Positions 6,558 through 61,895 of a stretch of 64,000 nt of DNA are shown piece after piece. The position numbers and the translations under genes are program-made. The notes below the pieces were generated by a model, which saw only the letters and a list, made by a program, of their open reading frames with translations, searched no databases and was not told the origin of the DNA. This stretch comes from Kiritimatiellia bacterium (GTDB lineage: Bacteria; Verrucomicrobiota; Kiritimatiellia; RFP12; DVOR01): contig JAFXKZ010000001.1 in NCBI GenBank assembly GCA_017531445.1, positions 1,522 to 65,521 on the forward strand, read 5' to 3'. The first letter of the stretch is position 1. Each line of letters begins with the position of its first letter.

Positions 6558-6663
6558 GGACATCGCCCATGTTGCGCGGTAATGTGGGCGAAGTGTGCGC
6601 TCAACTCCGCCGATCTTGTTGCGCAACATGGGCGATGTTCTCCGGTGAAGTCTGGCGGGATGG
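6558..6663. repeat. 22-bp phased pseudo-palindrome array A
   Basis: Cores CGCCC/GGGCG/CGCCG/GGGCG/TGGCG at 6564, 6586, 6608, 6630, 6653. Confidence 0.85.
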
Positions 6664-6752
6664 ACCGGGGGTGTGGCGATGGGCGGCACGGTGTAAAAAC
6701 GACACGCGGCGCGGAAAAGTTTCCGTGCCGCGTGTGTGTGCGCTTGAGGCGA

Positions 6753-9700
6753 TTATTCGATAATGCCGATTTCCGCCATGGAAGCGAATTCGTTTCCGTT
6801 CTGTTCGCTCTGCGCGATGAAACGGACATAGCGGACATTGGCGACAGGTTGCGCGAAGTGGATTTCCTGCACATCGGCGGTGTTTTTGAGGGTGCCGGTG
6901 GCGGCGGTCTTCCACGTTTTGCGGTCGGGCGAGACTTCTACCGTGAAGGTTTTTACACGTCCGTTGGTGCCGTCCTGACGCGCCATGCAGGTGATGCCTT
7001 TCAGGGTGCGCGTCTTATTGAGATCCATCGCCACGCTGTGCGGATATTTACCGAGGGTGACGCCATACTGCGAGTGCCAGTAGGTCATCGGGTCGCCGTC
7101 GCAGGCTTTGCCGCCTTCATAGCCCGGTTCCTGTGAGGAGCATTCCACAGCGAGGAAGGTTTCGGGGGGCGGGGGCATGGTTTCATCCAGCGTGACGACC
7201 TGTTCACGTACTGGCAGGAGCGGGGCAGCCGCTGCCGGGCGGAAGGCGAGGTTCAGGCGATAGGGCACAGTGGAGCGGGGAATATCGCGATTGAGCGGCC
7301 CCGGTCCGCAGCTGGCACCGCCCAGACCGCGATTGGTGCAGAGCAGGGTCAGCACGGTCTTGTCACTGGCGGGCAGTTCCTGTGGATGGCGGGCTTCACA
7401 GAGTTCGGTCGCCGTGTAGGGGAGTGCAGAGAAGGCAAAATCGCCCTCGTTAAGTGCGCTGACAGCGAGCCCTTGCGCGGTTTTCCCATTGGGGGTGAGG
7501 GCGAGGGCGAGGGTGTTTTCGCGATTGCCCATATCGTTGGGGCGGGCATAGTTGACGACCATATCTTTCACCGTGGAGGCATAGCAGGCCCGGAAAGCTC
7601 CGGTCTTGCGGTCGGGATAGTTTTCAAACGGTCCGCGCCCGAGGTAGGAGACGGTGTTCATGTCGCCCTTGAATGTGAGCGAATAACCCAACCGCGGCAG
7701 TTCAATTACGCGGCCGCGCGGGAGGATGGCCGATTGCAGGGTGAGGGTGCCGTCGGGGTAGACGCGCCAAGCGGCGTTGACCACAAAGTGGGTGTTCTTT
7801 TCGGAGACGGGGGTCTTCAGCGTCTCAAAGAAAGTCTTGTGCGTCATGCCGTTGTCGAAGTCGCGCAGACGTTCCAACGCCGCGCCCATTACGGTGGCGG
7901 AGGTGGTGAAGGTGACCGAACCATCGGACTGCGTTACCACGCCGGAGAGCTCGCCCTTGACGGGCACCAGTTTGCGCAGACCCTGCTGCGCCCAAGTGTT
8001 GCCCATCGGCACTTCGTTGGAAGAGGGGCAGCGGAAAGCATCCACGGTGAGCGGTTGGGTGAGCAGATCGGTGCCGTTGAGGGTGTATTGCACCAGGGTG
8101 GCACTCTTCTTGCAGAAGGTGGCCGTAAAGTGCTTGCCTTTGAATTGAACCGTCTTATCGGTGTCGATCACCTGTACGTTGCCTTTTGCCGTCACAGGAA
8201 TCGGCGCGGCCGCCTGGAGGGGGAGCTGATCCGAAGCAACCACGAAGCCCTTTTTCATCATTTGCTCATCTTGCTTGAGGGCAAACGTCACACGCAGGTC
8301 GTAACCGTTGGTGTCGCGCGGGATGCGCACGGGCAGGGCATAGGTGCCGCGCTGTTGGGGCCGGATGCCCGCCACATCAAAGTGTCCCTGTTGGTTGGTG
8401 GGCTGACCATTCTTGTAGAGCGTCCATGTGGCCGTTACGTAATCCAGCGGACGGAAGTAGTTCTTGTTCAGGATTTCCACCTGCCCCTCTTTCAGCGTGG
8501 CTTTGATGTTCTGGTAGACATGCGCCACTTCGTAGTAGCCCGGTTCGGGCGTGTGATCGGCAAGGATGGTGCCGTTGCAGACGAATTGCCCGGAGTTCGG
8601 GTGGTCGCCCCAGTCGCCGCCATAGGCGAGGATACGTTTGCCGCTGATGGGCGAGTCGTACCAGAGGGCTTGGTCGACCCAGTCCCAGATGGCACCGCCC
8701 ATGATGACATCCGAACTCTCGATTGCCGCCTGATAGTCTGCGAAGTTGCCGAGGGCATTCATCATGTTGTGGGCGTATTCGGAGATGTAGAAGGGCTTGT
8801 CGGCCTCCAGATGGGCGGCTTTCTGCTGTGTCCAGCCCACGGAGGGATATTGATTGGAGCCCATATCCACAATGTCGTTGTTGCGCTCATAGTGGGTGGG
8901 GCGGGTGAAGTCGCGCGCTTTGATGGTGCGTTCGGCCACGGCGAAATTGCGCCCGGGCCCGGCTTCGTTTCCGAGCGACCAGATCACAACGCAGGGCTGG
9001 TTTTTGTTGCGCTCCACCATGGTCATGATGCGGTCAACGTGGGCATCCATCCATTCCACGGGGTGGGAAAGGGATTCTTTACCATAGTAGTAACCGTGCG
9101 ATTCAATGTTGGCCTCATCTTCCACATAGATGCCATAGCGGTTGCACAGGTAGTAGAAATAGGGGTCGGCAGGGTAGTGCGAGCAGCGCACGTGGTTGAT
9201 GTTGGCCTCCTTCATCAGGCGGATTTCTTCTTCGCACCAGGCCTCTGGAATGGTGTGCCCCAAGTAGGGATTGGCTTCATGGCGGTTGACACCTTTGAGC
9301 TTGATCTTCTGACCATTGACCCAAAAGCGTTTCTTTTTGTCGCCATTGCGGGCGGCGACTTCCACCTTGCGGAAGCCGAGTTGCGCCGGGACGGCTTCGA
9401 TGAGGGCACCGGCTTCATCGCGCAATTCCAGCACGAGGGTATAGAGATTGGGTGTTTCTGCCGACCAGAGTGCCGGCGCGTCAAAGCGCATCAGCAGGCC
9501 TGTTTTCCATGATTTCTGCCCGGTGATATCAATCTTCTTGGAGGCGATTCCGTCCCACGGAGCATCTTTGGGGGTGACGGCGGTAACGGCTTTACCTTGT
9601 GCGTCGTAGACTTTGGCAGAGAGCGTAGCCTTGGCAGGGGTGAGGTCGGTGAAGTGATTCTTGAGCTCCACATCTACGACCACTTCCCACTGTCCGCCCT

Positions 9701-17020: not shown

Positions 17021-17126
17021 CGGTGTTGCCCGCATTGGAAATCACTGTCGGCGAAACTGCGTGTGCGTTTCGGCGGGATTGAAACGCGACATGGGCGGGA
17101 TTGCCCCCTCAATCCCGCCCATGTTG
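17021..17126. repeat. 22-bp phased pseudo-palindrome array B
   Basis: Cores at 17027 (degenerate), 17049, 17071, 17093, 17116. Confidence 0.85.
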
Positions 17127-17230
17127 TTTTTACGTCCGGAAGGGTGCTTTCCTGAAGGTGGCGGTGTGTGCTTTCCGGAGGCGCGGAGGCTCTTTGCAAA
17201 GCAGGGGGTTTGTGCTATGATGATAAACGT

Positions 17231-23491: not shown

Positions 23492-24358
23492 ATGACTTGG
23501 GGCTTTTCTTCCTATGAAACGCGTTTCCGTTGGGCGGCGGCGGTATGGGTGGTGCTGATGACCATCTGGTGTATGAGCCCGCTCCCTTGGCAGGTGCGGC
23601 TGACAGGCGCGGCGATCTGGTTGGGCATTACCGTGCTGATTTCGCTTTGGGTCGCCTGGTGGCGGCCGCGTTCCGAGCGCGATGTGCCGATTTTCCTCTG
23701 CTTTAATCATGTTGCCGAGCAGCCGGTAGAGGCGGCGCATCCGGAGCAAACGATTTCGCCGCGCGCGTTGGAAACCTTGATCCGCAACTTGAAAGCTGCG
23801 GGTTATCGTCTGCAAACCGCTTCCGAAGCGATTGCAGCGCCGGATCGGAAATCGGTGGTGATGACCTTTGATGGGGGCGCACGGAATGCGTTTTTTGAGC
23901 TTTTCCCGATTTTGCGCCGGTTGAATGCCAAAGCAACGTGTCTGATTCCAGCGCATGATCCGCTCGATGCCGACCAGCTGCGCGTGTTGGAGATTCAGGA
24001 AATGATGCGCTCGGGTCTGGTGGAATTTGGTGCAACGCTGACTGCCGATCAGGCGGCTTCGGCTACGTTAAAAGACGACGTTGTACGTACGCGCCGTTGG
24101 ATGACCGGTGTGCTGGGGCGGCAACCGGAAACGTTTTCGCTGCCCGATGGCGCAGAGGTTCAGACGGTGCGTGAGGCAATTGTCGCGGCAGGCTATCGGT
24201 ATCTCTTTACAAAGGGCAAGTATATGCGCCCTGTCGCGGAAAACCCCTTGGATATTCATCGGCGCATGATTCCCGGCAACCGCCGCCCGCTGCAAATCTA
24301 TCTGTTGGCGACCCGCGGACGGTACCGCGTGGGCTCCTCGCTGAAGCAGTCGCGCTAA
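23492..24358 (+). CDS. Polysaccharide deacetylase (CE4/NodB)-like protein, membrane-anchored, degenerate active site
   Basis: PIFLCFNHV, SVVMTFDGG, FPILRRLNAKAT, MRSGLVEFG; two N-terminal hydrophobic segments. Confidence 0.75.
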   Translation: MTWGFSSYETRFRWAAAVWVVLMTIWCMSPLPWQVRLTGAAIWLGITVLISLWVAWWRPRSERDVPIFLCFNHVAEQPVEAAHPEQTISPRALETLIRNLKAAGYRLQTASEAIAAPDRKSVVMTFDGGARNAFFELFPILRRLNAKATCLIPAHDPLDADQLRVLEIQEMMRSGLVEFGATLTADQAASATLKDDVVRTRRWMTGVLGRQPETFSLPDGAEVQTVREAIVAAGYRYLFTKGKYMRPVAENPLDIHRRMIPGNRRPLQIYLLATRGRYRVGSSLKQSR

Positions 24359-24438
24359 GTGGGCGATAGTGAGGGATCAACATCGGCGACATTGCGCTCT
24401 GAAGTGGGCGACATTGCAAGCCAACTTCGGCGATCTGT
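24355..24438. repeat. 22-bp phased pseudo-palindrome array C
   Basis: Cores at 24361, 24384, 24406, 24428. Confidence 0.85.
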
Positions 24439-24509
24439 AAAAGGCTTTCCGGGGGGAGTCTTTCCGGCGTAGTGCCGGAAGCGAAAAAGCATCGGGAGGG
24501 AATACGGTT

Positions 24510-25433
24510 ATGTCCATTTGCGATTCAGTATTGAATACCATCCATCATACGCCGCTAATTCGTCTCAACCGCTTCAATGACGGGGCGGCGGAAATTCTGG
24601 CCAAAGTGGAATCGTTCAATCCCGGCGGCAGTATCAAAGACCGGGTGGCACTTGCAATGATTGAAGCTGCCGAGCGCGACGGTGTGCTCTCTGCGGGGGG
24701 AATGATTATCGAGCCGACCAGCGGCAATACCGGCATCGGTCTGGCACTGGTGGCGGCCGTAAAGGGTTATCGGCTCATTCTGACGATGCCTGAAACCATG
24801 AGCGCGGAACGCCGGAAGCTTCTGGCGGCGTATGGTGCAGAGATTGTGCTTACGCCCGGCGCGGAGGGAATGCGCGGAGCGATCGAGAAGGCTTTTGCAC
24901 TGCAACGTGAACATCCGGGGAGTTTTATCCCGCAACAGTTTGAAAATCCGGCCAATCCGGAGGCGCACCGTCAGCAGACAGCACAGGAACTTTTGGCAGA
25001 TACAGAGGAGCAAATGGATGTTCTTGTGGCCGGCGTTGGGACGGGAGGGACGCTTTCCGGCATCGGAGCTGCACTGCGCGAACGCTTGCCTTCGTTGGAA
25101 ATCATCGCGGTTGAGCCCGATACCTCGGCGGTGCTCAGTGGCGGAAAACCCGGAGCCCACCTCTTGCAGGGCATCGGTGCGGGCTTCGTCCCAAAGAATC
25201 TTGAGACGGCTTTGATTACGCGTGTGTTCGCCGTTTCGGCAGAGGCTGCCGGCATCGCTGCGCGCAACGTGGCAAAACAGGAGGGATTGCTGGTGGGAAT
25301 TTCCTCCGGGGCTGCGCTTCATGCCGCCCGGCAACTCTCGCACGAGGCGGCCTATGCCGGTAAGCGGATTGTGGTTGTCCTTCCCGATGGCGGCGACCGT
25401 TATCTTTCAACATGGCTCTTTGAAACGCCTTGA
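24510..25433 (+). CDS. cysK: Cysteine synthase A
   Basis: NPGGSIKDR, EPTSGNTG, QQFENPAN, GVGTGGT, QGIGAG, GISSGA. Confidence 0.95.
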   Translation: MSICDSVLNTIHHTPLIRLNRFNDGAAEILAKVESFNPGGSIKDRVALAMIEAAERDGVLSAGGMIIEPTSGNTGIGLALVAAVKGYRLILTMPETMSAERRKLLAAYGAEIVLTPGAEGMRGAIEKAFALQREHPGSFIPQQFENPANPEAHRQQTAQELLADTEEQMDVLVAGVGTGGTLSGIGAALRERLPSLEIIAVEPDTSAVLSGGKPGAHLLQGIGAGFVPKNLETALITRVFAVSAEAAGIAARNVAKQEGLLVGISSGAALHAARQLSHEAAYAGKRIVVVLPDGGDRYLSTWLFETP

Positions 25434-26814: not shown

Positions 26815-28827
26815 ATGGGAGACCTCATTATCGACGCGTTAGTCTTCTTTGGCTTTATCGCGTGTGTCCTCTTTGTCGGCTTCTTCAAAAGCCGTAAAAA
26901 AGCCGGAGAAGGCGAGCAGAACGCGGAAGACTACTTCCTTGCCGGACGCGGCCTCAGCTGGTGGCTCATCGGTTTTTCGTTGATTGCTGCCAACATCTCC
27001 GCCGAACAGTTTGTCGGTATGTCGGGGCAGGGTGCCGGTCTTGAAGGCATCTCTTGCGCCTCATGGGAATGGATTGCCGCCATTACGTTGGTCGTGGTGG
27101 CCTTTTGTATGTTGCCTTACTTCCTGAAGACCGGTATCACAACCATGCCGGAGTTTCTGGAGGTGCGCTACAACCACGTCGCCCGTACGCTGATGACGGT
27201 CTCGATGATCGGGATTCTCATTGTCGCTTCGTTGATTGGCGTTACCTATGCCGGTTCGCTCGTGATGTGGCAGCTGTTCAATGCGTTTGGCGTGGGAATT
27301 ACGTTCCCCACGTGTTGCATTATTATGTCGGTAATTGCCGGAGCGTATGTGCTGTTTGGCGGGCTCAAAGCCTGTGCGTGGGCAGATCTTATTCAGGGAG
27401 CTGCACTTATCGTCGGTGGTGGGGTGATTGCTTACTTCGCCATCAAGTATCTGGGTGAAGCTCCGGCAGACACGCTTGTCGGCTTTGGGGGTGAGACCAC
27501 GGAAGCAGCAGGCGCACTTGAACGTTTTCAGGATCTCAACGCTGCCAAGATGCACATGGGGCGTCCTGCTACGGATGCGGCCATGCCGTGGACAATTCTC
27601 ATTATGGGTATCTGGATTCCCAATTTCTATTATTGGGGTTTGAATCAGTACATTACCCAGCGCATTCTCGGCTCGGGTTCGCTCGCGGAAGGTCAGAAGG
27701 GCATTGTCTTTGCGGCGGCCCTCAAGCTTATTATTCCCTTTATCATCGTGATTCCCGGCATTATTGCGTTCAATCTCTGCGCGCCGAAAATGGCGCAAGA
27801 CTCTGCCAAGTCCATCGTGGAAAAGGTGCAGAAGGGTGAATACAAGGCGGATGAACTGGTGGTGTGCTATTCGCTTTCGGCAGATATGGCAACGGCTGAT
27901 CAATCCAATATCGCGCTTTCCAAGGCGTTAGGTCCTGAGGTTGTGGGCAAGTTGCAGACGCACAATGCGCCGCTTCTTGCCAAGATTGCCGATACGCTCG
28001 GTTGCCCGGTTGCGGCACTGGGCCCCGACAAGATTATTCCCGCTGCCGCCAAGGGAAAGGCCGGTTACATCACGTTGAAGGACGGTACCGACATCAAGGT
28101 GGTTGACAATACCTACAAGTATGATGGTGCGCTCGGTCATTTGATGGATATGCTCCCGAAGAATAAGGGTGTACTCGGCTTCGTGCTCGCCGCACTGCTC
28201 GGTGCGATTGTTTCTTCACTTGCCGCCGTGCTCAATGCCACCTCCACGCTTTTCACGATGGATATCTTCCAGCGTTATCTCAAGCCGGATGCCAAGCCTG
28301 CAACGCTGGTGTTCATGGGGCGTATGGTCACAATCGTGCTGGCCGTGCTCGGATGTGTGGTTGCTGCCGGTTTGAAGTCGGAGTCGATTTTCAAGTACAT
28401 TCAGGAAGTGCAGTGCTACGTTTCGCCCGGCATCTTTGCGGTGTTCGCTTTCGGTATGCTCAATCGCTCGGGCGGACGCTGGGGTGGCGTGTGCGGTCTT
28501 ATCTTCGCGCCTGTGGTGTTCTACTTCCTCAACACTTGGGGGTGGGACTGCTTCCCCTCGTGGATTCTTGGACCGCTCAGCGGTATTGAATGTCTCGGCA
28601 TCCCGGCTGATGGCGGCTCGATGCACTATCTGATCGCCGCTTCCTACACGCTGGTGCTGACGCTTCTTTTCATGCTGATCTACAGCTTGATCTGGAAGCT
28701 TCCGACGGCGGAAAAGGTGGAATTCAAGACCAATACCACGCTGGATCTGACCATGTCCAAGGGCGCATTGATTGCCGGCTTTGTGGTCTGCATTCTCACT
28801 ATCGCGCTCTACGTTTACTTCTGGTAA
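26815..28827 (+). CDS. Sodium:solute symporter (SGLT-like sugar transporter)
   Basis: DYFLAGR, ANISAEQFVGMSG, TMPEFLEVRY, GGLKA, YWGLNQYITQR; multiple TM helices. Confidence 0.93.
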   Translation: MGDLIIDALVFFGFIACVLFVGFFKSRKKAGEGEQNAEDYFLAGRGLSWWLIGFSLIAANISAEQFVGMSGQGAGLEGISCASWEWIAAITLVVVAFCMLPYFLKTGITTMPEFLEVRYNHVARTLMTVSMIGILIVASLIGVTYAGSLVMWQLFNAFGVGITFPTCCIIMSVIAGAYVLFGGLKACAWADLIQGAALIVGGGVIAYFAIKYLGEAPADTLVGFGGETTEAAGALERFQDLNAAKMHMGRPATDAAMPWTILIMGIWIPNFYYWGLNQYITQRILGSGSLAEGQKGIVFAAALKLIIPFIIVIPGIIAFNLCAPKMAQDSAKSIVEKVQKGEYKADELVVCYSLSADMATADQSNIALSKALGPEVVGKLQTHNAPLLAKIADTLGCPVAALGPDKIIPAAAKGKAGYITLKDGTDIKVVDNTYKYDGALGHLMDMLPKNKGVLGFVLAALLGAIVSSLAAVLNATSTLFTMDIFQRYLKPDAKPATLVFMGRMVTIVLAVLGCVVAAGLKSESIFKYIQEVQCYVSPGIFAVFAFGMLNRSGGRWGGVCGLIFAPVVFYFLNTWGWDCFPSWILGPLSGIECLGIPADGGSMHYLIAASYTLVLTLLFMLIYSLIWKLPTAEKVEFKTNTTLDLTMSKGALIAGFVVCILTIALYVYFW

Positions 28828-29171: not shown

Positions 29172-29388
29172 TGAAGATGCCCGTTGGTGGCGTTGAAGAG
29201 GGGCAAAGTGGTGCTACAATGTGGGCGAACTGCAGAAGCAATCCGGGCGAAGTTGAAGTTTACTGCCGCCCAAATTGAAACGCCTTTCCGCCTTGCTGTG
29301 TGCCAGTGAGCCCGCGCCACTCCAGATTTAATGCCGCTCAATTGAAAAGACTTTCCGCCGGGAGAGACCTTGCGCTCCGGCGAAAGCA
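29172..29388. repeat. Long degenerate 22-bp phased array I
   Basis: Cores at 29178, 29201, 29223, 29245, 29267, 29289, then 29356, 29378 still in register. Confidence 0.7.
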
Positions 29389-29487: not shown

Positions 29488-31053
29488 TCAGGGCTGTTGT
29501 TGCCGTTTCTCCAGGGTAATGCCGCGGTAGGTTACGCCGATATGCTGCGTCTTTCCGGCGATGCCGGAATAGAAGATGAGTTGCCAATGACCGCTCTTGG
29601 GCGTGGAAAATTCATAGGTAAGACCACCCTTTGCCCGGATGTAATCGAGGTCGTAAAGGGCGCGCGTGAAGCATTTTTTGGCGCAGGGATCGTAAATCCC
29701 CAACGAAATCCCGGCCGTCTCTCCGGCATTTACCTCAACGGCATTTACGTTCAGCACGTAGGTCGCGCCATTTTCCAGAGGCGCATTCAGAGCCCGAAAA
29801 TGGCAGGTTTTCTTTTTCTCAGGCGGGAGAGTTAAGGTCTCCATTGCCGCAACGGGAGTGGTGGCAGTCTCGGCGAGGGGTGTTTCGCTTTCGCTTAACT
29901 TTAGGAGAATACTCCTCCGGCTGGAGGGGTTGAGCATAATCATCACAAGGTCCGGACGCGTCCGGCGGATGTATTCCAATGCCGAGCAGTCTTTGAAGTG
30001 ACGCAGGTCGATCAGGTCAACCTCCCGGTAGCAGAGCGCGAGGAATCCGGCGATGGCATTGACAAACGAATCTTTGATGATTAAGAGGCGTTTGGAGGAA
30101 GTTGCTTGGGGATTCCAACATTTGACGAGTGGATGGTCGCCCCCCAAATAGACCACATAGGCGCAGGTTTGATAGAAATCGTGGCGTTGATCAATCCATT
30201 TCCGCTCCAGAAAAGTATCGGCATACGCTCCTTTACGCAAGTTGTTTTTTGCGGGAATGGCCACCGAAAACGAGGTTTCAAAGCGCGGTTCATACCAGAG
30301 CAGTGTGTCCAATCCGCCGTAGTAACGCCCCACACGTCTGCCTTCCGAGCCCAACCACCAGGCGTTTCGCGTATGGAGCGTCCAGCGGGTTTCCTCCAAA
30401 AGTCCAAGATCGCGCTCGGGCGTACCCAGGATGCCGTCAATCTTTTTCACAATCAACGGCGCCGCTTTCAGTGCGCCGCGCGCGTTCCAGTGGTGGTCGG
30501 TGGCATAGAAGTAGCGGGCAAGATCTTCCGGACGTTCGTTTATTACCGATCGCATGTCCAGGGTGTCGATGTGGCGTTGCGCCAGCATTTCCAACAGTAA
30601 ATCAGAATCCTGATTCGTCGTCCGCTGCGTACCGGTGGGCAAGAGTTCGCTGTGGCGGTCGGGCTTATCGGGCAGATTGATATAGAGCAACCGGCTGCCC
30701 AGCTTTTCCGCCTCCGCCTTGGTATGGGCGATTTTCGCTGCGGCCTCCGGGAGCTCTTTGTCGAGATTCCATGTATCCAAACGTGCCAACATCCCATTGT
30801 TCAGGCGGGCAATCTTGTTGTAGACCCTTTGTCCGAGCAAACGGGCATAGGCGCCATTCAATTCTATAAAGGTGTTTTTCCCTTTGAACTGCTGTACATA
30901 TTTTGTGTGCGTAGCGTGGATCAGCTTGCTGAACGAGCGGTGGTCTGGCGTTTCCAGAAGACAACGTAGTGCCACTTTCAGGTTGGCTATCGTCAGCACA
31001 GTAATCAATCCGATGAAGCAGAACGCGAGACTCTTTTTGGCAATGTTCTTCAT
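29488..31053 (-). CDS. AlgX/AlgJ-like (DHHW, SGNH) polysaccharide O-acetyltransferase with extra C-terminal domain
   Basis: N-terminal TM; PDK, YYATDHHWN, LLIIKDSF; downstream of an MBOAT gene. Confidence 0.85.
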   Translation of the reverse strand: MKNIAKKSLAFCFIGLITVLTIANLKVALRCLLETPDHRSFSKLIHATHTKYVQQFKGKNTFIELNGAYARLLGQRVYNKIARLNNGMLARLDTWNLDKELPEAAAKIAHTKAEAEKLGSRLLYINLPDKPDRHSELLPTGTQRTTNQDSDLLLEMLAQRHIDTLDMRSVINERPEDLARYFYATDHHWNARGALKAAPLIVKKIDGILGTPERDLGLLEETRWTLHTRNAWWLGSEGRRVGRYYGGLDTLLWYEPRFETSFSVAIPAKNNLRKGAYADTFLERKWIDQRHDFYQTCAYVVYLGGDHPLVKCWNPQATSSKRLLIIKDSFVNAIAGFLALCYREVDLIDLRHFKDCSALEYIRRTRPDLVMIMLNPSSRRSILLKLSESETPLAETATTPVAAMETLTLPPEKKKTCHFRALNAPLENGATYVLNVNAVEVNAGETAGISLGIYDPCAKKCFTRALYDLDYIRAKGGLTYEFSTPKSGHWQLIFYSGIAGKTQHIGVTYRGITLEKRQQQP

Positions 31054-31059: not shown

Positions 31060-32493
31060 TCAGAAATTGAAGTAGATAAAGGGATTGTGTGCGTTCATGA
31101 TCAGATAGGAAACCCCTATCAGGAAGAGGAGCAGTTGCACGGCATAACCGAGCGTTGTGAGGGCTTTTGCCAAACGAATCTGACGCTGTGCCAGACGCTG
31201 TGTCAACGTTTTGAAGAGGGGAATCGAGCAGAGAATGCCGACGAGCAGCACCCATTTAATCTCGTTGAAATGGAAGTAAAAGGCATCGTCAATCCATGCT
31301 ACAGCCGAGCCGCCTGCCATGATTTTCAGATAGTCGCCCGCCGCCGTCAGATTTTCGGCACGGAAGATCACCCAGCCGCAGACGACCGCAAGCAGCGTCA
31401 CTCCCCGGTAAAGTCCGCGCCACCAGACACCACTTTCCAATTTTTGCGGCACGGAAAACCATTTTTCTGCTGTAATCATTACGCCGTAGAGTGCGCCCCA
31501 TACAATGAAGGTCCAGTTCGCACCATGCCAGATGCCGGTGGTAAACCAGGTGAGAAAGAGATTGAAAGAAAGCCGCACTTTGTTCTTTACGCGTGAACCG
31601 CCCAGCGGGAAATAGAGGTAGTCTCTGAACCAGCTTCCCAGCGAGATGTGCCAGCGTCTCCAGAACTCCGTCGCGCTTTTGGCGATATAAGGATAGTTGA
31701 AGTTCATGGGGAAGTTGAAGCCGAACATCAGCCCAAGCCCGATGGCCATTTCGGAATATCCGCTGAAGTCGAAATAGATTTGCAGGGTGTAGCAAATTGC
31801 ACCCAACCACGCCATGCTTACGGAAAGACCCTCCATTTCAAAGGCTTTGTCGGCCACGATGGCAAAGAGATTGGCCAGCAACATCTTTTTGTTGAAGCCG
31901 TAAAGGAAGCGCAGAACGCCCTGTGAGAACATTCCGAGGGTGACTTTACGGTATTCAATTTGCCGGCGGATGGTGGTATAGCGCACGATGGGTCCGGCAA
32001 TCAGTTGCGGGAAAAGCGCGATATAAAGCCCCAGAAAGGCCGGGTTCTTTTGTGCCGGCACACCGCGGTAGACATCGATGACATAACTCATTGCCTGGAA
32101 GGTGAAAAAGGAGATCCCGATGGGAAGCACAAAACTGGTTTGCGGGATAATGCCCTGCCATCCGGGAAAGAGCGTACGGCAAATGTCGGTGATGAAGTTG
32201 CAATACTTGTAGAGAAACAGCACCGAGCAGTTCCCCAGAATTGCGAGGGTCAGGGCTCCTTTTGCGCAGCGGTTCCAGAGGTTTTTCTGAAGATGCCCCA
32301 CGATGATCGCCGCCACATAGTTGAACAGGATGGAGGCAATCATCACCAGCACAAACTTCGGTTCGCCCCATGCGTAGAAGAAAAGCGATGCGGCCAGCAA
32401 CCAATAATTCTTTATTCGCTCTGCCAGAAGGAAGTAGGTGCCGATGACAATCGGAAAGAAGAGAAAGAGAAATTCCAGACTGGTAAATAGCAT
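31060..32493 (-). CDS. MBOAT O-acyltransferase, AlgI/DltB/PatA-like
   Basis: PIGISFFTFQ, FPQLIAGPIVR, YFDFSGYS, FWRRWHISL, GIWHGANW, NPFIYFNF. Confidence 0.95.
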   Translation of the reverse strand: MLFTSLEFLFLFFPIVIGTYFLLAERIKNYWLLAASLFFYAWGEPKFVLVMIASILFNYVAAIIVGHLQKNLWNRCAKGALTLAILGNCSVLFLYKYCNFITDICRTLFPGWQGIIPQTSFVLPIGISFFTFQAMSYVIDVYRGVPAQKNPAFLGLYIALFPQLIAGPIVRYTTIRRQIEYRKVTLGMFSQGVLRFLYGFNKKMLLANLFAIVADKAFEMEGLSVSMAWLGAICYTLQIYFDFSGYSEMAIGLGLMFGFNFPMNFNYPYIAKSATEFWRRWHISLGSWFRDYLYFPLGGSRVKNKVRLSFNLFLTWFTTGIWHGANWTFIVWGALYGVMITAEKWFSVPQKLESGVWWRGLYRGVTLLAVVCGWVIFRAENLTAAGDYLKIMAGGSAVAWIDDAFYFHFNEIKWVLLVGILCSIPLFKTLTQRLAQRQIRLAKALTTLGYAVQLLLFLIGVSYLIMNAHNPFIYFNF

Positions 32494-32554
32494 CTGCCAC
32501 TCCTTATTATTGTCTTACCGGGCTGCCACTGCCACTGTATGCCCATTTCTTACA

Positions 32555-32583
32555 AGTATACTCCCCCCCCCCCAGACTGTCAA
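32555..32583 (-). promoter_or_regulatory. Near-consensus sigma70 promoter with a G11 tract in the spacer
   Basis: TTGACA-gtct-G11-ag-TATACT (17-bp spacer); C11 on + strand at 32563-32573. Confidence 0.85.
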
Positions 32584-32600: not shown

Positions 32601-32750
32601 ACGCGTCGGCAAGGGTGGCAACCGCCCCCGGCGGAGCGGTTTTTGAACATCGGCGAAACAGCGGGGGGAAGATCGCCGAAAGTCGGGGTGAGAGTCGCCC
32701 ATATGGCACGTGAATATCGGCGAAAGTGAAAAACGCTTCCGGCGGAGTGT
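32601..32750. repeat. 22-bp phased pseudo-palindrome array D
   Basis: Cores at 32607, 32629, 32651, 32674, 32696, 32718, 32740. Confidence 0.85.
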
Positions 32751-37644: not shown

Positions 37645-37751
37645 CAATGTCCCCGAAACGGGGTGGACAACGTCGCCCACACTGAAGCGGAACATCGCCG
37701 AAAGACTACCGCAACATGGGCGATGTTGGACGGCAGGTTTCGCCCATGTTG
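37645..37751. repeat. 22-bp phased pseudo-palindrome array E
   Basis: Cores at 37651, 37674, 37696, 37718, 37741. Confidence 0.85.
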
Positions 37752-37781
37752 AAAAACGCTTCCAGAGGAGGTGCGAAAAAG

Positions 37782-40556: not shown

Positions 40557-40632
40557 TGGTAGGGGTGCACGGGCTTGAACCGTGGACCCAGTGATTAAGA
40601 GTCACTTGCTCTACCAACTGAGCTACACCCCC
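40557..40632 (-). tRNA. tRNA-Lys(CTT)
   Basis: 76-nt cloverleaf, anticodon arm AGTGA-CT-CTT-AA-TCACT, GGTTCAAG T-loop, encoded CCA. Confidence 0.95.
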
Positions 40633-40639
40633 ATAAAGA

Positions 40640-40715
<76 letters not shown>

Positions 40716-40750
40716 TTTGGTAGGTTGTCTTTGGCGTTCCATCTTCGGAA

Positions 40751-40826
40751 TGGTAGGGGTGCACGGGCTTGAACCGTGGACCCAGTGATTAAGAGTCACT
40801 TGCTCTACCAACTGAGCTACACCCCC
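40751..40826 (-). tRNA. tRNA-Lys(CTT), second identical copy
   Basis: Identical to 40557-40632. Confidence 0.95.
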
Positions 40827-40834
40827 ATAAGAGA

Positions 40835-40910
<76 letters not shown>

Positions 40911-40929: not shown

Positions 40930-40958
40930 ATGATAGCAGTTCTCTTCTGGGGATGCAA
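40930..40958 (-). promoter_or_regulatory. tRNA operon promoter
   Basis: TTGCAT-N17-TATCAT with TG extension; A-rich upstream. Confidence 0.75.
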
Positions 40959-41051: not shown

Positions 41052-41179
41052 CGGCTGGGGCGAAAGAGGTGAAAAGCTTGATAAATCAAGGTTTTGAAGA
41101 TGGGCGAAAGTGAGGGTGGAACGTGGGCGAAATTGCGCGGTCGTTTCGCCCATATGACGCAAGAAGATGGGCGAAACTG
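41052..41179. repeat. 22-bp phased pseudo-palindrome array F
   Basis: Cores at 41058, (one unit skipped), 41102, 41125, 41147, 41169. Confidence 0.85.
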
Positions 41180-41371
41180 AATGCGCGTTCCGCTGGAGCC
41201 GTGGAATGAGGGCGTAAAAAGGTGGCATTGCTTCCGCCGGGCGTGGTGGTCTCCGGCGTTGATTCCGGTGAGACAGCGGCGCGAAAAAGACTTTTGTCAT
41301 GGTCGCCGCGGGCACACGAAAAAGGCGATGGCAACAGACGTTTGGCAGAGACGGATGTGCTATAATAATAG

Positions 41372-41500
41372 ACGTCATTTTCAGGGACGGGTGAGATTCC
41401 CTATCGGTGGTATTCAGCCCACGGGGTCTTTGTCGGGTGGCAGGGGCCGGATGCGATATTGCGCAGCCGACGGTTAGAGTCCGGAATGAAGAAGATGACG
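41372..41500 (+). ncRNA. FMN riboswitch (RFN element)
   Basis: CGTCATTTTC-AGGGACGGGTGAGATTCCC-TATCGGTGGT...AGCCCAC...GCCGACGGTTAGAGTCCGG...GAAGATGACG; upstream of ribBA; TGcTATAAT at 41358-41366. Confidence 0.9.
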
Positions 41501-46399: not shown

Positions 46400-46527
46400 C
46401 ACCTTGGGCATCTTCGGTTTTCAGTTTCGGCGATGTTCCCCCTCCACTTTCGCCGAAACTGACGCTCAATGCGGGCGATGTTGCCCGTCAATCCCGCCCA
46501 TGTTGATGACGGCCTTCGGCGCAAGCA
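46400..46527. repeat. 22-bp phased pseudo-palindrome array G
   Basis: Cores at 46406 (degenerate), 46428, 46451, 46473, 46495, 46517. Confidence 0.85.
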
Positions 46528-46705
46528 GTTTCAGCTTCTTGCCGTTGGCTCCGACGAATTGTCAAAGGTGGTTGTGGGTAGGGTGCCGGTTGTATTCCGC
46601 AGATGCGTGTGTTACACTTTAGGTGCTGGTCAAACGGAATGAATGTCGCCCGGAGGTGAACCGGGGAAATCGTGCGTTCTAAAACAAAAACAGAAGGTGT
46701 TGAAA

Positions 46706-47677
46706 ATGAATCTGCATATGAAAACGGCAGTTTTGCTGTGGATAGGGCTGTTTCCTGTAGGGATGATGGCGCAAAAAATTATTCTTGATGGCGAAGGTGC
46801 AGCATTGGAAGCGCAAATGGAATTATATTCCCGCAGGACGAACAGTGCGGCGATGAAGCAGCAATATGCTTCGTATGCGACGAGAGAAGACTATACGGAT
46901 TTCTCTGCGGTGCAGTTCAAAGAAATCTATGAAAAGCAGTTAAAGGCGATGTTTCTGATGGTTGGTGGTAAACTCATTCAAGTGAAAGAATGGCGATATC
47001 GTGATCCGTTATCGTATCCTATTGCACCGAGGGCGAGGTTGGAACCGATTGAAAATCTTCCGGTGCCGATACCGGAAAAGTATCGCGTGCAAGTGAAAAC
47101 GCCGCTGGGAAATGGGTGTTATCTGGCGAAGGTCTGCAAAGGGCGGCAGGGTTATCTCTACAAGGGACTTGTGGTGTTTGAGGGTGCAAATGCGGCAAAT
47201 TATCGGCCGGATACGGTATTGGAAGCCTATTTGATAAAGATCAATCCGCTGGAAGTTACGGGCATAACGCTTCCGGAACCGGTTGCGATTGCTTGGAAAT
47301 GCGTCCCGGATGAGATGGGTGATTCGGTGCATCCGCCGACATTGCAAGAAATGGCGGCGGCAATGAAAAGCGGGCGTGTCGCGCCGATTGTTCTTGTTCC
47401 GGAAGGTGATTTACCGTGTGAAATGTGTGCTGCGACCGGGATTGATCAAGCCAAAATCGATGCCGCTGCTGCCGCAGCCAAAGCAGAGAGTCGCCGTTTG
47501 GGGAAAAGCAGACGAACGTATGATCCTTTGGGGAAAGCAACGGTAAAACGGAACGATCTGGGAGAATCAAAGGCGTTTACTGCCGCGAAGCTGAAACGCA
47601 ACAAGCCGAAATGTCAAACGTGCGGCGGCGATGGGAAAGTGCCTTGCGAGGTGTTTCGCCGCTTGATCCAGAAATAA
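46706..47677 (+). CDS. Exported hypothetical protein with a split DnaJ-type zinc knuckle pair
   Basis: Signal-peptide-like N-terminus; CEMCAATG and CQTCGGDG. Confidence 0.7.
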   Translation: MNLHMKTAVLLWIGLFPVGMMAQKIILDGEGAALEAQMELYSRRTNSAAMKQQYASYATREDYTDFSAVQFKEIYEKQLKAMFLMVGGKLIQVKEWRYRDPLSYPIAPRARLEPIENLPVPIPEKYRVQVKTPLGNGCYLAKVCKGRQGYLYKGLVVFEGANAANYRPDTVLEAYLIKINPLEVTGITLPEPVAIAWKCVPDEMGDSVHPPTLQEMAAAMKSGRVAPIVLVPEGDLPCEMCAATGIDQAKIDAAAAAAKAESRRLGKSRRTYDPLGKATVKRNDLGESKAFTAAKLKRNKPKCQTCGGDGKVPCEVFRRLIQK

Positions 47678-59028: not shown

Positions 59029-59030
59029 AC

Positions 59031-59783
59031 TTACCGATCCTCAAGGTAGTGCAATCGCAATTTGCCCAAAAGGTCTTCGCCGAAGCCTTCCAAGTCCACG
59101 CTGACGGCTTCAAGTTTGCTCTGCAAAAGGTTGTAGCCGATTGTCGATGGGATCGCCACCACCAAACCAACGACCGTGGTTAACAGTGCCGAAGAGATAC
59201 CGGGGGCCAACTGGGCGATATCCGCACTGCCGCTGGCCGCCATCGCCTGAAAGGCGTACATCACACCCCAGACGGTGCCGAAAAGCCCCATCAGCGGTGC
59301 CGAACTGGTGAAAATGGCAATCCAGGTCATTTCTGAACCGTTGAGCCGGACGCACGCTTCTTCAATCGTGTGAACGCAGACCGATTCCACCAAATCCATC
59401 TGCTTGCGCGTTAAACTGAGGCGATACGTGGGGTCGAGGTGCATTTTCTGGCGTTGTTCCACAGGGACCAATGCCGCCAGACGTTCACAGCTGTTGGCAT
59501 AAATCTGACCGATGGGTGTATCGGTGAGCGTCTGCAACTGGTGCGCATTCTCCACGAAAATCTCCAGCGGGTCGTTCGTCCGCACAAAGGCATCGACAAA
59601 TTGTGCCGACCGCGCACTGACCTCTGCGAGTTTCACTTTCTTGCTGAGCATCATTCCCCATGAGCAAATGCTCATCACAATCTGCGCGATGACAATGCAC
59701 TGCCCCATGAAGTCCGAGTCGGCAAAAGCACGAAATGGTCCCAGCGAGCCGATATTCAAAAGAAGCAAATCTGCCGGTATCAT
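59031..59783 (-). CDS. TolQ/ExbB protein
   Basis: APLMGLFGTVWGVM, LAPGISSALLTTVVGL..AIP. Confidence 0.92.
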   Translation of the reverse strand: MIPADLLLLNIGSLGPFRAFADSDFMGQCIVIAQIVMSICSWGMMLSKKVKLAEVSARSAQFVDAFVRTNDPLEIFVENAHQLQTLTDTPIGQIYANSCERLAALVPVEQRQKMHLDPTYRLSLTRKQMDLVESVCVHTIEEACVRLNGSEMTWIAIFTSSAPLMGLFGTVWGVMYAFQAMAASGSADIAQLAPGISSALLTTVVGLVVAIPSTIGYNLLQSKLEAVSVDLEGFGEDLLGKLRLHYLEDR

Positions 59784-59786
59784 TGC

Positions 59787-61496
59787 TTAAATCCTCTCGG
59801 GAGTGGGGATGCCCAGCAGGGTTAAGCCGCCGCGCAACACCTTGGAAACGGCGTCGCACAGACGGATGCGGCTGTCGCGCACTTCCGGCTCGGCCTTCAG
59901 GACGGGCGAACTCTGGTAGAAACTGCTGTAGAGCTGGCTCAACTGGTAGAGATAGTCGGCAAGGATGCTCGGCTTGCAGAGATCACCCGCCCGCTGCACG
60001 GTGTTGGGATATTGCAGCAGATGCAGGGCGAGCGACTTCTCGGCATCGGTGCCGAGCACGAGCGGATGCGCGGAGGGATCTTCGCCGGTCGCGGCGCGGT
60101 ATTTATCCAAAAGCGAATTCAACCGTGCATTGGCATATTGCAGATAGGGCCCGCTATTGCCTTCGAGCGCGAGCGCACGCTCCCAGGTGAAGACAATCAT
60201 TGTCGTGGGATCGTGCGAGAGATCGGCATACTTGATGGCACCGATTCCGATAGCTTCTGCCAATGCTGCACGTGCAGTGTCGCTCCAATCCGGATGACTC
60301 TCGTCCACGATTTTCCGTGCGCGTGCGGCTGCTTCATCCAGCAGGGTTTCCAATTTGATGACATTACCCTGACGCGTGGAGAACGTCCCTTCCGGAAGAC
60401 GCATCAACCCAAAATAGACGTGCTGTAACACTGTCTTGGCGCAGTAGCCGAGCTTGGCGCAGATGGCAAAAAACTGCTTGAAGTGCAGCTGCTGACGATC
60501 GTCGGTGACGTAAATAATCCGTGCAGGGGCAAAGGATTCGGTGCGGTCTTTCACCGTGGCGATATCGGTGGAGGTGTAGTTGAAGCCGCCATCGCGTTTG
60601 CGCACAATGGCCACTTCCAGCCCTTCGTCTTTCATGTCTACAATCCATGCGCCCTCGCTCTGGGTGGCGAGTCCTTTTTCTTTGAGCGTTTCCACCACGG
60701 GAGCGAGCATCGGCTGATAGTAACTTTCACCCCGGTAAAGATCAAAGTGGACGTCCAAGCGGTCGTAGATGCGCCCGAATTCTTTCAGCGAAATCTCAAT
60801 AAAGCGTTTCCACACCGCCAGATTCTCTGCATTGCCTGCCTGCAAACGCACAAGCTCTTCGCGGCATTGTTCCAACCACGCCGGGTCTTCCTTTGTGGCG
60901 TTGTAGCTCTTCACATACACCTTTTCAAGCAGTTCCACCGTGAGATTGTCGCGCTCTTCTTCGGTGAGGAAATGACGGTATCCCATGATGAGAATGCCGA
61001 ATTGCGTCCCCCAGTCGCCCAAATGATTGTCGGCGATAACCTCATATCCCAGTGCCCGCAGGATGCGGTCAATCGCATTGCCGATGACGGTGCTGCGGAT
61101 ATGACCGATGTGCATCGGTTTGGCCACGTTGGGTGATGAATAATCGATGACCACCTTTTCTCCCGCGCCGCTCTGGGCGATGCCGAGATGGGCATCTTGT
61201 GCAAGGGCGCAAACACCGGCGGCCACGGCCGATTTTGAAAGCGTCAGATTGATAAATCCCGGACCTGCCACTTCGGCTTTTTCCAATATCTCCGGAAGGG
61301 GAAGAGCGCGGATCACCTCTTCGGCCAATGCGCGTGGATTTTTCCCGGCACGTTTTGCAATTCCCATGGCATCATTGCACTGCCAATCCCCAAAACGCGT
61401 ATCTTTCGAGGGCACGACCTTGCCTCCGCCGCATCCCGGCACCACTGCCTCAAATGCTTCACTCAACCACTTTTTTGCAAGACCTTCGCAATCCAT
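59787..61496 (-). CDS. argS: Arginyl-tRNA synthetase
   Basis: FGDWQCN, AGPGFIN, DYSSPNVAKPMHIGH, HLGDWGTQFG, GNSGPYLQYA; alternative GTG start at 61544. Confidence 0.96.
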   Translation of the reverse strand: MDCEGLAKKWLSEAFEAVVPGCGGGKVVPSKDTRFGDWQCNDAMGIAKRAGKNPRALAEEVIRALPLPEILEKAEVAGPGFINLTLSKSAVAAGVCALAQDAHLGIAQSGAGEKVVIDYSSPNVAKPMHIGHIRSTVIGNAIDRILRALGYEVIADNHLGDWGTQFGILIMGYRHFLTEEERDNLTVELLEKVYVKSYNATKEDPAWLEQCREELVRLQAGNAENLAVWKRFIEISLKEFGRIYDRLDVHFDLYRGESYYQPMLAPVVETLKEKGLATQSEGAWIVDMKDEGLEVAIVRKRDGGFNYTSTDIATVKDRTESFAPARIIYVTDDRQQLHFKQFFAICAKLGYCAKTVLQHVYFGLMRLPEGTFSTRQGNVIKLETLLDEAAARARKIVDESHPDWSDTARAALAEAIGIGAIKYADLSHDPTTMIVFTWERALALEGNSGPYLQYANARLNSLLDKYRAATGEDPSAHPLVLGTDAEKSLALHLLQYPNTVQRAGDLCKPSILADYLYQLSQLYSSFYQSSPVLKAEPEVRDSRIRLCDAVSKVLRGGLTLLGIPTPERI

Positions 61497-61790
61497 CTTC
61501 TTCTGCTCCTGAAACTCGGATAATCTTTGTCGGCAAATAAACACGCCGATATTCTACCACAATCGGCGCACGGACACACGCGCCTACGCGTAAAAAGATG
61601 CAACTGTTGTGTCCGTTTCCGGCACTTCCGCTGCGCGGACAAGGTTTTGCTGCTTCACTCTTGCCGTACATTTCGTCTTCAGTCCGTTGCACGCTTCTGG
61701 GCAAAAGTGGCGGAGGATTAAGCCCGTCTGAAGAATAAAATAACCCGTTGCGCCAGAATGATAAATCTTCGTTTCCGCGTGGTGCGGCAG

Positions 61791-61895
61791 CACGTCCGCC
61801 GGAAGCCCTGTGCAACATGGGCGATACTGCCGCGCAACATGGGCGACTTTCGCCGTCATTATCGCCGATATCCGCCGTGCGTTTCGCCCATGTTG
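61791..61895. repeat. 22-bp phased pseudo-palindrome array H
   Basis: Cores at 61797, 61819, 61841, 61863, 61885. Confidence 0.88.

Follow-up and report, generated by a model that had tools for sequence, protein, structure and literature searches.

Helically phased four-unit arrays upstream of promoters in a gut Kiritimatiellae genome: predicted protein-binding modules that also behave as dispersed repeats

Nine Arrays in the Window

The stretch of DNA analyzed here, hereafter the window, comprises 64,000 nucleotides (C1:1522-65521) of a two-contig metagenome-assembled genome (MAG) of a Kiritimatiellia bacterium (G000; 1,404,358 bp, G+C ~52%). Nine of its intergenic regions contain an array with four strong copies of a near-palindromic 17-bp unit, spaced about two helical turns apart, and these arrays are the subject of this report. 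All nine were found where an earlier note, made from the sequence of the window, had placed them (Table 1). The assembly is scored as 50% complete, a half-complete Kiritimatiellae MAG of the genus Candidatus Spyradenecus; its GyrB is 93% identical to that of a Candidatus Spyradenecus sp. MAG and 78-92% identical to those of other animal-gut MAGs labelled Kiritimatiellae or Lentisphaeraceae. Computations were run on the whole assembly, with an order-3 Markov genome as the control for motif and array counts. Genes were called with a home-made codon-usage score, promoters were likewise called with a home-made procedure, and relatives were sampled in part, as given with each count. In the portions of the literature that the searches reached, nothing was found on such repeats or on genome features of the genus.

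Table 1. Arrays and associated promoter elements of the window. Positions count from the first base of the window; the third column gives the orientation of the successive 17-bp units or the strand.
Feature	Position	Units or strand	Context
Array 1	6558..6640	four units -+-+	124 bp upstream of minus-strand PEP-CTERM gene 5751-6434
Array 2	17043..17126	four units +++-	upstream of gene starting at 17222; units 3 and 4 exact reverse complements
Extended -10 TGCTATGAT	17213..17221	+	fires outward; begins 87 bp past the end of array 2
Array 3	24355..24438	four units +++-	upstream of pyridoxal phosphate (PLP)-enzyme gene 24510-25433; bridged colinearly in three diverged strains
Array 4	29195..29277	four units +++-	convergent gap, 26815-28827 (+) / 29488-31053 (-)
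Array 5	32645..32728	four units ++-+	divergent gap, MBOAT gene 31060-32493 (-) / ExbB-like operon (+)
Array 6	37668..37751	four units -++-	ends 22 bp before the ATG of radical-SAM gene at 37773
Array 7	41096..41179	four units ++-+	between divergent tRNA operon 40557-40910 (-) and flavin mononucleotide (FMN)-riboswitch/ribBA unit from 41373 onward (+)
Extended -10 TGCTATCAT of tRNA operon	40930..40938	-	~160 bp from the left edge of array 7; fires away
Extended -10 TGCTATAAT	41358..41366	+	starts 179 bp beyond array 7; ends 7 bp before the FMN riboswitch
Array 8	46422..46505	four units +-+-	upstream of gene 46643-47677
Array 9	61813..61895	four units ++--	divergent gap, argS 59787-61544 (-) / oxidoreductase gene 62196-63389 (+)

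The genes that face the arrays are diverse (PEP-CTERM, PLP enzyme, MBOAT, ExbB, radical-SAM, ribBA, the tRNA operon, argS and an oxidoreductase), and do not constitute the regulon of a pathway. Next to array 2, the ATG directly follows the extended -10 element, which implies a transcript with little or no leader. Tandem Repeats Finder returned 15 rows for the window, none of them on the nine arrays, because the units are too diverged for its detection.

Architecture of the Arrays

Across the genome, the seed CAACATGGGCGATGTTG with up to four mismatches is matched 369 times, as compared with 46 times in the Markov genome, and a position weight matrix (PWM) derived from these matches gives 401 matches of at least 16 bits, as compared with 17. 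Neighbouring PWM matches are separated by 22 bp, centre to centre, in 287 pairs, by 23 bp in 77 and by 44 or 45 bp in 17; every other distance up to 120 bp occurs at most four times, and the control shows at most three occurrences at any distance, with no peak. The spacing of 22 bp, occasionally 23 bp, that had been read from the window is thus a property of the genome, and it is identical for unit neighbours in the ++, +-, -+ and -- orientations. Chaining of the matches resulted in 156 arrays of at least two units (105 with four units, 20 with three, 25 with two and six with five). The analyses below draw on the 131 arrays of at least three units, the 105 of exactly four and, for covariation, 510 units. 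The score of four-unit chains is bimodal, with 145 arrays at a score of at least 10 and 132 at a score of at least 40, and none in the control at either threshold.

The 17-bp unit reads (C/G)AA(C/T)AT-(C/G)GGCG-A(N)(A/G)TTG. Positions 8-11 are conserved at 90-100%, and the GGCG core is nearly invariant. With C at position 7 the unit becomes a perfect odd palindrome, and its orientation is then hardly more than the identity of the centre base. The earlier note had described a core that flips between neighbouring units; neighbours do vary in orientation, but for the most part this involves just the centre base of the odd palindrome TCG-G/C-CGA. Its statement that the spacing of the units is conserved rather than the linker sequence holds genome-wide, as the linkers contain at most 0.3 bit per position.

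The first slot of the four-unit arrays is occupied by a unit in '+' orientation in 81% of cases and the fourth by a '-' unit in 73%, with the middle slots at ~50%; these inverted outer units carry the same motif as the inner ones. The module is T-rich on its left flank and A-rich on its right flank. From the orientation of the outer units and the composition of the flanks, it follows that the whole module has dyad symmetry. The span from the first to the fourth centre is 66 bp in 43 and 67 bp in 61 of the 105 four-unit arrays, with a single outlier of 90 bp. The one 23-bp spacing may fall in any of the three slots (21/13/29 cases), and arrays with two or more long linkers, of which ~10.9 are expected under independence, were not observed (P ~1e-5).

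Copies cease to resemble each other abruptly at either end of the ~88-bp module, and the most similar pairs in G000 are 75-80% identical. Units within one array are alike at 13.0 of 21 positions and units from different arrays at 12.5, with complementarity also barely higher. Weaker sites continue in phase outside the arrays, where the mean best PWM score declines from -12 through -16, -17.5 and -20 to -22 at -22, -44, -66, -88 and -110 bp, respectively, relative to a genome mean of -25. The decay of the flanks noticed in the window is an in-phase decay, and the A+T profile holds the 22-bp lattice to ~240 bp from the array.

Genomic Location and Phasing with Promoters

Twenty of the 131 arrays of at least three units touch a called open reading frame (ORF), nearly all of them at an over-extended 5' end. 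After trimming of these starts, 130 of the 131 arrays are intergenic. Arrays are found in divergent (51), co-directional (66) and convergent (12) gaps, in agreement with the earlier observation that they occupy all gap types, but they are not evenly spread: the corresponding numbers for all gaps of at least 100 bp are 73, 258 and 60, so that an array is present in 51 of the 73 divergent gaps of this size, or in 53 of 88 when a second gene set is used. When small ORFs are added, the array-containing gaps number 53/65/13 against a background of 88/254/79 (chi-square 31.9, P = 1e-7). Of the 262 array sides, 171 face the start of a gene and 91 face the end of one. This placement, together with consensus flanks in which T prevails ahead of the array and A behind it, opposite to what a terminator shows, led us to reject the intrinsic terminator as an explanation (array 2 is an exception), as had been anticipated from the window.

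Extended -10 elements were suggested by the k-mers of the flanks. The pattern TGNTANNNT is present within 400 bp of arrays 163 times in the outward and 42 times in the inward direction, with a peak 75-200 bp from the array edge, and a strict extended -10 pattern occurs 40 times outward and never inward. Of the 171 gene-start sides, 100 have an outward extended -10 in the interval that separates the array from the gene, as compared with 6 of the 91 gene-end sides (Fisher P = 5e-18). Viewed from the promoters, 42 of the 124 non-coding extended -10 matches have an array at most 400 bp upstream. The distance from the centre of the outer unit to the -10 is periodic and best described by a period of 11.0 bp (for the strict pattern, n = 54 and Rayleigh R = 0.472; for the loose pattern, n = 145 and R = 0.305), and 0 of 2000 jittered nulls reach the observed value in either case. 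This phase lock spans promoters located 30-320 bp from the array. The phase is kept although the flanks lack detectable similarity and the flank of array 3 gains insertions and deletions (indels), and we therefore read it as selected rather than inherited.

The promoters of this genome appear to be extended -10 elements of the form TG[C/G]TA[T/C]A[A/C]T with no obvious -35 (for example at window positions 17213-17224 and 41358-41366, and in a genome-wide list). Many of them are followed by an ATG only 7-10 nt downstream, which suggests that leaderless or very-short-leader mRNAs are widespread. Strings of the type CTTTCCGG..GGAG recur in intergenic DNA near arrays (5395-5420, 6465-6520, 17140-17185 and 24445-24470), with no positional enrichment beside them.

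The distance between arrays has a minimum of 3375 bp and a median of 8993 bp, so that the interval of about 7 kb estimated from the window has to be revised to ~9 kb. The spacing is more even than chance, with a coefficient of variation of 0.69 as compared with 0.90 +/- 0.08 in random sets of intergenic gaps (0 of 1000 reach it). The three longest array-free stretches are a 55-kb prophage-like region, a 31-kb low-GC island and three giant genes. The first of these (C1:291016-345807) contains 41 mostly same-strand small genes, the majority with no Pfam family and one with a Terminase_5 match, and looks like a prophage. The second (C2:557856-588504) has a G+C content of 45% (51-53% in the genome), carries Vsr and HNH endonuclease genes, and was probably acquired horizontally.

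Unit Families in Related Genomes

A pattern of three cores at 22/23-bp spacing matches 105 times in G000, 26 times in G022, 10 times in G019, nine times in G002, and once each in G005 and G014; in G014 the matching unit is an unrelated one. The remaining 18 of the 24 genomes of the genus gave no match, and neither did 16 genomes of other families. A control pattern unexpectedly matched G016, which possesses its own family, GATCRGCSGCYGATC, with an 11-bp linker and the same period. We further used an unbiased lag-22 autocorrelation, which recovers 73 of the 131 G000 arrays. The scan revealed 22-bp arrays built from other units, among them CAACCCGGGGCGGGTC (in G003 and several GenBank MAGs), AAACCCTTAAGGGTTT, TTATCCCTNAGGGATAA and GACCTAGGGCCTACCTC, and near-perfect 22-bp tandems with different units are present in the gyrB loci of relatives, in G003 and in G016. 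The samples contained 16 arrays in 100 kb of G016, six in 54.6 kb of G003, three peaks (two of family A) in 100 kb of G019, and no 22-bp array in 100 kb of G007. Across ten genomes of other families (272 kb in total) the lag-22 scan gave only one, low-complexity, match. Canonical 7-mer spacing profiles agree with the lag-22 array counts in the relatives. The 4 x 22-bp architecture is thus found across the genus, with unit sequences that differ from species to species.

Two observations on other spacings and units were made along with these scans. In G007 (loci L063-L067 and L259), k-mer spacings are in excess at 14, 16 and 28 bp, and a run of the heptamer CTGTTCT lies upstream of the TetR gene. 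G000 itself contains a lone array of a different unit, CCATAATGGAAGAT..., at C2:762242-762340, also in four copies at 22 bp (50 of 66 lag-22 matches).

The family-A array of G022 sits in a non-coding cassette of 500-780 bp, the copies of which are 72-92% identical. The layout of the cassette is fixed. Counted from a TACACT -10 element, its cores are found at -156, -134, -112 and -92, a further unit stands alone at -275, and the TTATCAACA boxes occupy -418, -407 and -211. In L014:1950-2440 and six other loci, the blocks identical in all seven are two TTATCAACA boxes 11 bp apart, AACTCCGCTACAG.GGCTTCCTTGCGAAA, the third box, the array and a TTGAC-17-TACACT promoter; the TTATCAACA boxes show no link to the arrays of G000. 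One G016 array likewise adjoins AAAGTTATCAACAA. At L070:8250-9120, also in G016, three arrays alternate with a ~200-bp repeat in a higher-order tandem of ~300 bp, just upstream of a TGCTATAAT promoter and a leaderless ATG. The G002 arrays carry a conserved hairpin-like head. In short-read MAGs such arrays are often found at contig ends, so that their absence from fragmented MAGs is weak evidence.

Orthologous positions were compared at several loci. In the gyrB neighbourhood of 18 relatives, an array lies upstream in four and downstream in three, and is absent in 11. Three checks of orthologue positions gave one loose match and two mismatches. Upstream of the orthologous gene for a TetR-family protein, a 22-bp array is present in six of 20 relatives as well as in G000, with a different unit in each; four of the six relatives' arrays are near-perfect tandems (56-64 of 66 lag-22 matches). 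Within the window, at 5306-6753, G000 is ~1.1 kb longer between gyrB and a GH2 gene than a syntenic relative (L023:2694-2954); the additional DNA corresponds to the PEP-CTERM gene and array 1, both absent from that relative.

Tests for RNA Structure and Mobility

In the 510 units, Watson-Crick pairs are as frequent at each of the 11 mirrored position pairs as expected if the two positions varied independently (for example 0.30 vs 0.30, 0.32 vs 0.34 and 0.56 vs 0.59), and the mutual information is at most 0.025 bit. There is no covariation within or between units, and the palindromy is therefore a property of the consensus as read on double-stranded DNA. Rfam 15 at the gathering score yielded five matches in the window (the FMN riboswitch and four tRNAs), none on an array, and no match in four G022 loci. 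One contig of an RNA library (X19) covers array 7 (41063-41404) at a depth of 4.7, and may represent carried-over DNA; the library has low depth and leaves parts of a 20-kb stretch uncovered.

Target-site duplications (TSDs) were sought as identity between flanks at k = 2-9. The only excess came from unit-internal offsets (TGAA of the consensus), with none for k of 6 or more. A self-megablast of the 1.40 Mb assembled, which represents half of the genome, found no multi-copy repeat of at least 700 bp and hence no insertion sequence (IS) family. The Y1/RAYT transposase family (PF01797) has no match in G000 at its 50% completeness, nor in the array-rich G016, G002 and G019 (91-93% complete); it is matched in five of 28 genus genomes (four above the curated cut-off), and its presence does not track the arrays. 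Five arrays were compared with three strains at 1.3-2.2% divergence, and all 15 combinations are bridged colinearly, with no joint that skips an array. In the one flank that was studied closely, that of array 3, indels of 1-2 bp between strains are concentrated immediately beyond the array. Array 6 is covered by two X17 contigs, one of which has +1/-2 indels at half depth; loose ends at 37712 and 37750 suggest a partial match from another array. A scan of metagenome contigs with the MBOAT protein gave no close strain (best matches 82% over part of the protein and 62% over its full length). Array 6 has no blastn match in 72,556 plasmid records, nor in phages. A pattern scan of viral contigs returned 36 stretches, and the three that were inspected are unrelated perfect 23-bp and 11-bp tandem repeats.

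Discussion

The arrays combine a rigid frame and a promoter phase lock with family turnover, cassettes and poor positional conservation. For this reason we favor, at about even probability, a hybrid reading in which they are predicted cooperative protein-binding modules that have spread as repeats and have been retained at the heads of transcription units. The rigid frame, the independent half-sites, the decaying in-phase neighbours and the promoter phase lock fit cooperative binding of dimers on one face of the DNA, and not a decaying mobile element or an RNA. Dyads on one face, independent half-sites and a conserved spacing with free linkers are also what characterizes operator arrays for a dimeric protein, taken as a functional class. 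By contrast, the family turnover, the multi-copy cassettes and the poor conservation of positions make clear that the modules behave like dispersed repeats as well. The cooperative loading of a dimeric protein proposed in the earlier note is thus in keeping with the strict register, fixed span, independent half-sites and phased flanks, but no binder was identified among the small proteins screened. Its comparison with parS, matS or SBS sites, which are solitary chromosome-organizing sites, does not hold as it stands, since the arrays are placed upstream of promoters and in helical phase with them.

According to this hybrid reading, the element would be a nucleation module for an oligomeric protein that binds double-stranded DNA. 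The four near-palindromic 17-bp sites are two helical turns apart, and four dimers could therefore share one face of ~88 bp, presumably in mutual contact. The weaker in-phase sites may allow the assembly to extend outward for ~100 bp or more. Since the promoters are in 11.0-bp register with the array, the bound protein and the RNA polymerase would share a helical face. The modules are located at the heads of transcription units, typically with 75-200 bp between them and the extended -10 promoters that point away from them, and are anticipated to set the architecture upstream of the promoter. They could do so as a common upstream regulatory site or by separating neighbouring units, especially divergent ones, as a barrier. 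They would have spread and turned over as dispersed repeat families, with the same 4 x 22-bp frame and different units in each species.

Six turns of the array take up 66-67 bp and the period to the -10 is 11.0 bp, which amounts to a register of 11.0-11.2 bp per turn. Relaxed B-DNA has 10.5 bp per turn, and 11.0-11.2 bp corresponds to ~5% underwinding. This register of underwound DNA leads us to propose that the assembly may sense or constrain negative supercoils behind promoters. A more far-reaching version, which we regard as possible but doubtful, would posit a hitherto unknown mode of organizing the DNA upstream of promoters in this genus. The organizer would be one protein specific to the lineage, or a few paralogues whose specificity changes quickly. 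Four dimers would occupy each 88-bp module and spread along a lattice of 11 bp, of which the -10 is part. The sites fall into register at ~11.0-11.2 bp per turn and only there; for this reason the assembly would sense or clamp negative supercoiling between transcription units, and serve genome-wide as a sequence-addressed topological insulator or activator. Its modules would be copied by means other than a classical transposase.

Several findings weigh against protein binding. A Pfam scan identified few DNA binders, namely Fur, Lrp/AsnC, CsoR, HTH_17-EIIA, YbaB, two HU, DtxR, MraZ, TetR, Rex and NrdR proteins, an extracytoplasmic function (ECF) sigma factor and a serine resolvase. No fitting array-binding protein was found by Pfam and distribution across genomes among the 234 non-membrane ORFs of at most 260 aa that were screened in the assembled half of the genome. 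Lrp/AsnC was discarded because it is not lineage-specific (23 of 24 genus genomes and 10 of 16 of other genera), and HTH_17-EIIA for the same reason (24 of 24 and 13 of 16). The TetR-family protein (C2:547473-548162) is the only genus-restricted, fast-evolving regulator with an upstream array, which lies 75 bp from the gene in G000. It is present in 24 of 24 genus genomes, and outside the genus only at 30-33% identity in three of 16. Within the genus its sequences are 40-64% identical (74-97% for Lrp), with a fast-evolving C-terminal domain. It was likewise rejected as sequence-specific binder, given that its helix-turn-helix, LTKGAVFWHFKSKE, hardly changes between species that carry different unit families; a conserved recognition helix cannot explain species-specific units. 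The assembly is only 50% complete, and the gene calls derive from a home-made codon-usage model. Only 86 of the 131 arrays have a recognizable outward extended -10, and thirteen lie in convergent gaps with no obvious promoter. Array positions are poorly kept between species, and the unit sequences differ even among closely related genomes (seen at the TetR locus of G000, G013 and G022), such that a single binder would require rapid co-evolution with more than 100 sites, unless several binders exist. In addition, the arrays of G022 and G002 are modules of larger repeated cassettes, often at contig ends, as expected of a repeat family, and G022 has a second dispersed family, GAATTTCAGTCAAATTC, with 34 matches, many of them ~130-250 bp from contig ends.

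The main rival explanation is that the arrays are a selfish, non-autonomous dispersed repeat, of the miniature inverted-repeat transposable element (MITE) or REPIN/BIME type, the phased sites of which bind its own recombinase or transposase. Conservation would then reflect the needs of transposition, and the link to promoters an insertion preference or promoters carried on the element. Species-specific families with patchy abundance in the genus, several families per genome, the similarity of the G022 cassette copies, arrays at contig ends in G002, G003 and G022, outer units that tend to be inverted like terminal repeats, and positions that are not conserved between species all speak for it, and the MITE or minisatellite alternative raised in the earlier note is to that extent right. 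However, the flanking repeats, IS family and PF01797 transposase that such an element would call for were not found in the genomes and assemblies searched, and the five arrays show no presence/absence difference in the three strains. Similarity between the G000 copies does not exceed ~80% and their flanks are not conserved, yet the register, the core and the 66/67-bp span are kept, which neutral decay would not achieve; the 11.0-bp phase lock lies in flanks with no detectable similarity, one of which, at array 3, accumulates indels; and no arrays occur in the prophage-like and low-GC regions. We therefore judge this explanation unlikely, although it is the strongest of the alternatives.

Less probable still is that the arrays are structural DNA that acts independently of sequence, in which local duplication of 22-bp units with A+T-rich arms and a G+C-rich core gave rise to ~88 bp of curved or flexible DNA, selected for its shape upstream of promoters and with no sequence-specific binder. 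The period, and not the sequence, is constant throughout the genus: six relatives have unrelated 22-bp units at the TetR locus, four of them as near-perfect tandems, and such tandems of other units recur at gyrB loci, in G003 and in G016. The A+T profile also alternates at 11 bp, with the promoters within the lattice. Shape alone, however, would not demand that ~140 G000 arrays share one consensus with a nearly invariant GGCG core, and the families consist of many copies at dispersed positions. The units of one G000 array resemble one another no more than they resemble units of other arrays, and thus do not have the appearance of local duplication, unless this is very old and the units have been held to a common consensus. 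A transcribed element, either a structured RNA of four small hairpins or an intrinsic terminator or attenuator, is hardly credible. A single unit can be drawn with a 6-bp stem and a 5-nt loop, units 3 and 4 of array 2 form a perfect 16-bp hairpin followed by a T-run, and the RNA-library contig covers array 7. Against these stand the lack of covariation and of Rfam families, the flank composition opposite to that of a terminator, the mixed unit orientation in dyad-symmetric arrays, promoters that lie downstream of the arrays and fire away from them, and the low depth of that contig.

In its anatomy the module appears to work like lambdoid operators or phased iterons, and in its genomic behaviour it resembles REP/BIME, BOX and MITE sequences. 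The operator regions of lambdoid phages consist of 17-bp dyad operators 6-7 bp apart that are bound cooperatively by repressor dimers. The arrays share with them 17-bp pseudo-palindromes, short free spacers, ~22-24 bp from centre to centre, neighbours of unequal strength and a nearby promoter, but number ~140 on a 1.4 Mb chromosome, have four sites, lie 75-200 bp from promoters rather than over them, and have no attached repressor gene. Plasmid iterons (R6K, RK2 and pPS10) are 17-22-bp direct repeats phased at ~22 bp, bound by monomers and located beside a rep gene at one locus. The two-turn period, the four or five copies and the use of different sequences in the same frame are comparable, and the three TTATCAACA boxes of the G022 cassette resemble DnaA boxes. 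The arrays, in contrast, are mixed-orientation dyads, dispersed genome-wide with no rep gene nearby and next to diverse housekeeping genes, and iterons of the plasmid type were rejected on these grounds. A clustered regularly interspaced short palindromic repeat (CRISPR) array was rejected in view of the 17-bp units, 5-6-bp linkers and four copies, as opposed to repeats of at least 23 bp with ~26-72-bp unique spacers. The earlier note had set aside both of these possibilities.

Repetitive extragenic palindromic (REP) sequences and bacterial interspersed mosaic elements (BIMEs) with their REP-associated tyrosine transposases (RAYTs), known as REPINs, are short imperfect palindromes with hundreds of intergenic copies, which are species-specific, occur as several families per genome and form alternating clusters at fixed spacing. 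The arrays are likewise dispersed intergenic palindromes with species-specific families and a fixed spacing, and their copy number (~140 arrays, 130 of 131 intergenic, in mixed orientation) is of the REP/BIME kind. As to the exclusion of REP stem-loops proposed from the window, the 510 units have no stem covariation and the G000 assembly gave no match to a cognate PF01797, while copy number and mixed orientation are those of REP/BIME. The arrays further differ in having 17-bp units held in a rigid frame of 4 x 22 bp that spans 66/67 bp, in the lack of Y1/RAYT in G000 and three array-rich relatives, and in a position upstream of promoters, in phase, rather than mainly at 3' ends. Like MITEs, the arrays are small, non-coding, dispersed and intergenic, with outer units that tend to be inverted, families that differ between species and near-identical copies in some relatives. 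They differ in lacking TSDs, an autonomous element or IS in the 1.40 Mb and insertion polymorphism between strains, and in retaining register and core at no more than ~80% similarity.

SlmA-binding (SBS), Noc-binding (NBS), MatP-matS and ParB-parS sites are single palindromic sites with an origin-to-terminus bias. They have in common with the arrays that palindromic sites for a dimeric protein, in some cases with spreading, are scattered over the chromosome; the arrays differ in having four sites, in lying upstream of promoters and on both contigs, and in their species-specific sequences. Pneumococcal BOX elements and the neisserial intergenic mosaic elements (NIMEs) and Correia elements are modular non-coding repeats with tandem sub-units near promoters, effects on expression and no known transposase of their own. 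In this they are similar to the arrays, and they are distinguished by unit size and by the absence of reported strict helical phasing, as compared with the exact four copies and -10 phase lock of the arrays.

If a protein binds the arrays, they would represent a new genome-wide system of promoter architecture in the little-studied, uncultured gut Kiritimatiellae, with a simple geometry of four dyads at 22-bp intervals that keep an 11.0-bp register to the -10, and a natural case of many DNA sites and a protein specificity that turn over together between close species. If they are selfish, they would constitute a class of repeats that stands out for the rigidity of its internal frame and for which no transposase is apparent, informative on how short repeats spread in reduced genomes. 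Because arrays coincide with contig ends in short-read MAGs of the genus, their number in such MAGs may be underestimated.

Additional Observations

The tRNA operon next to array 7 consists of a duplicated tRNA-Lys(CTT)/tRNA-Gly(GCC) cluster on the minus strand (40557-40910), beside the FMN riboswitch/ribBA (+, 41373-41500), and both diverge from the array. Upstream of the MBOAT gene, a homopolymeric C run is located at ~32551-32563; strain X13 has two extra C, and the run may be a phase-variable tract. Elsewhere in the assembly, two Cas2 genes (C1:87856-88203 and C2:936870-937178) are present, so that the genome probably has two CRISPR-Cas loci.

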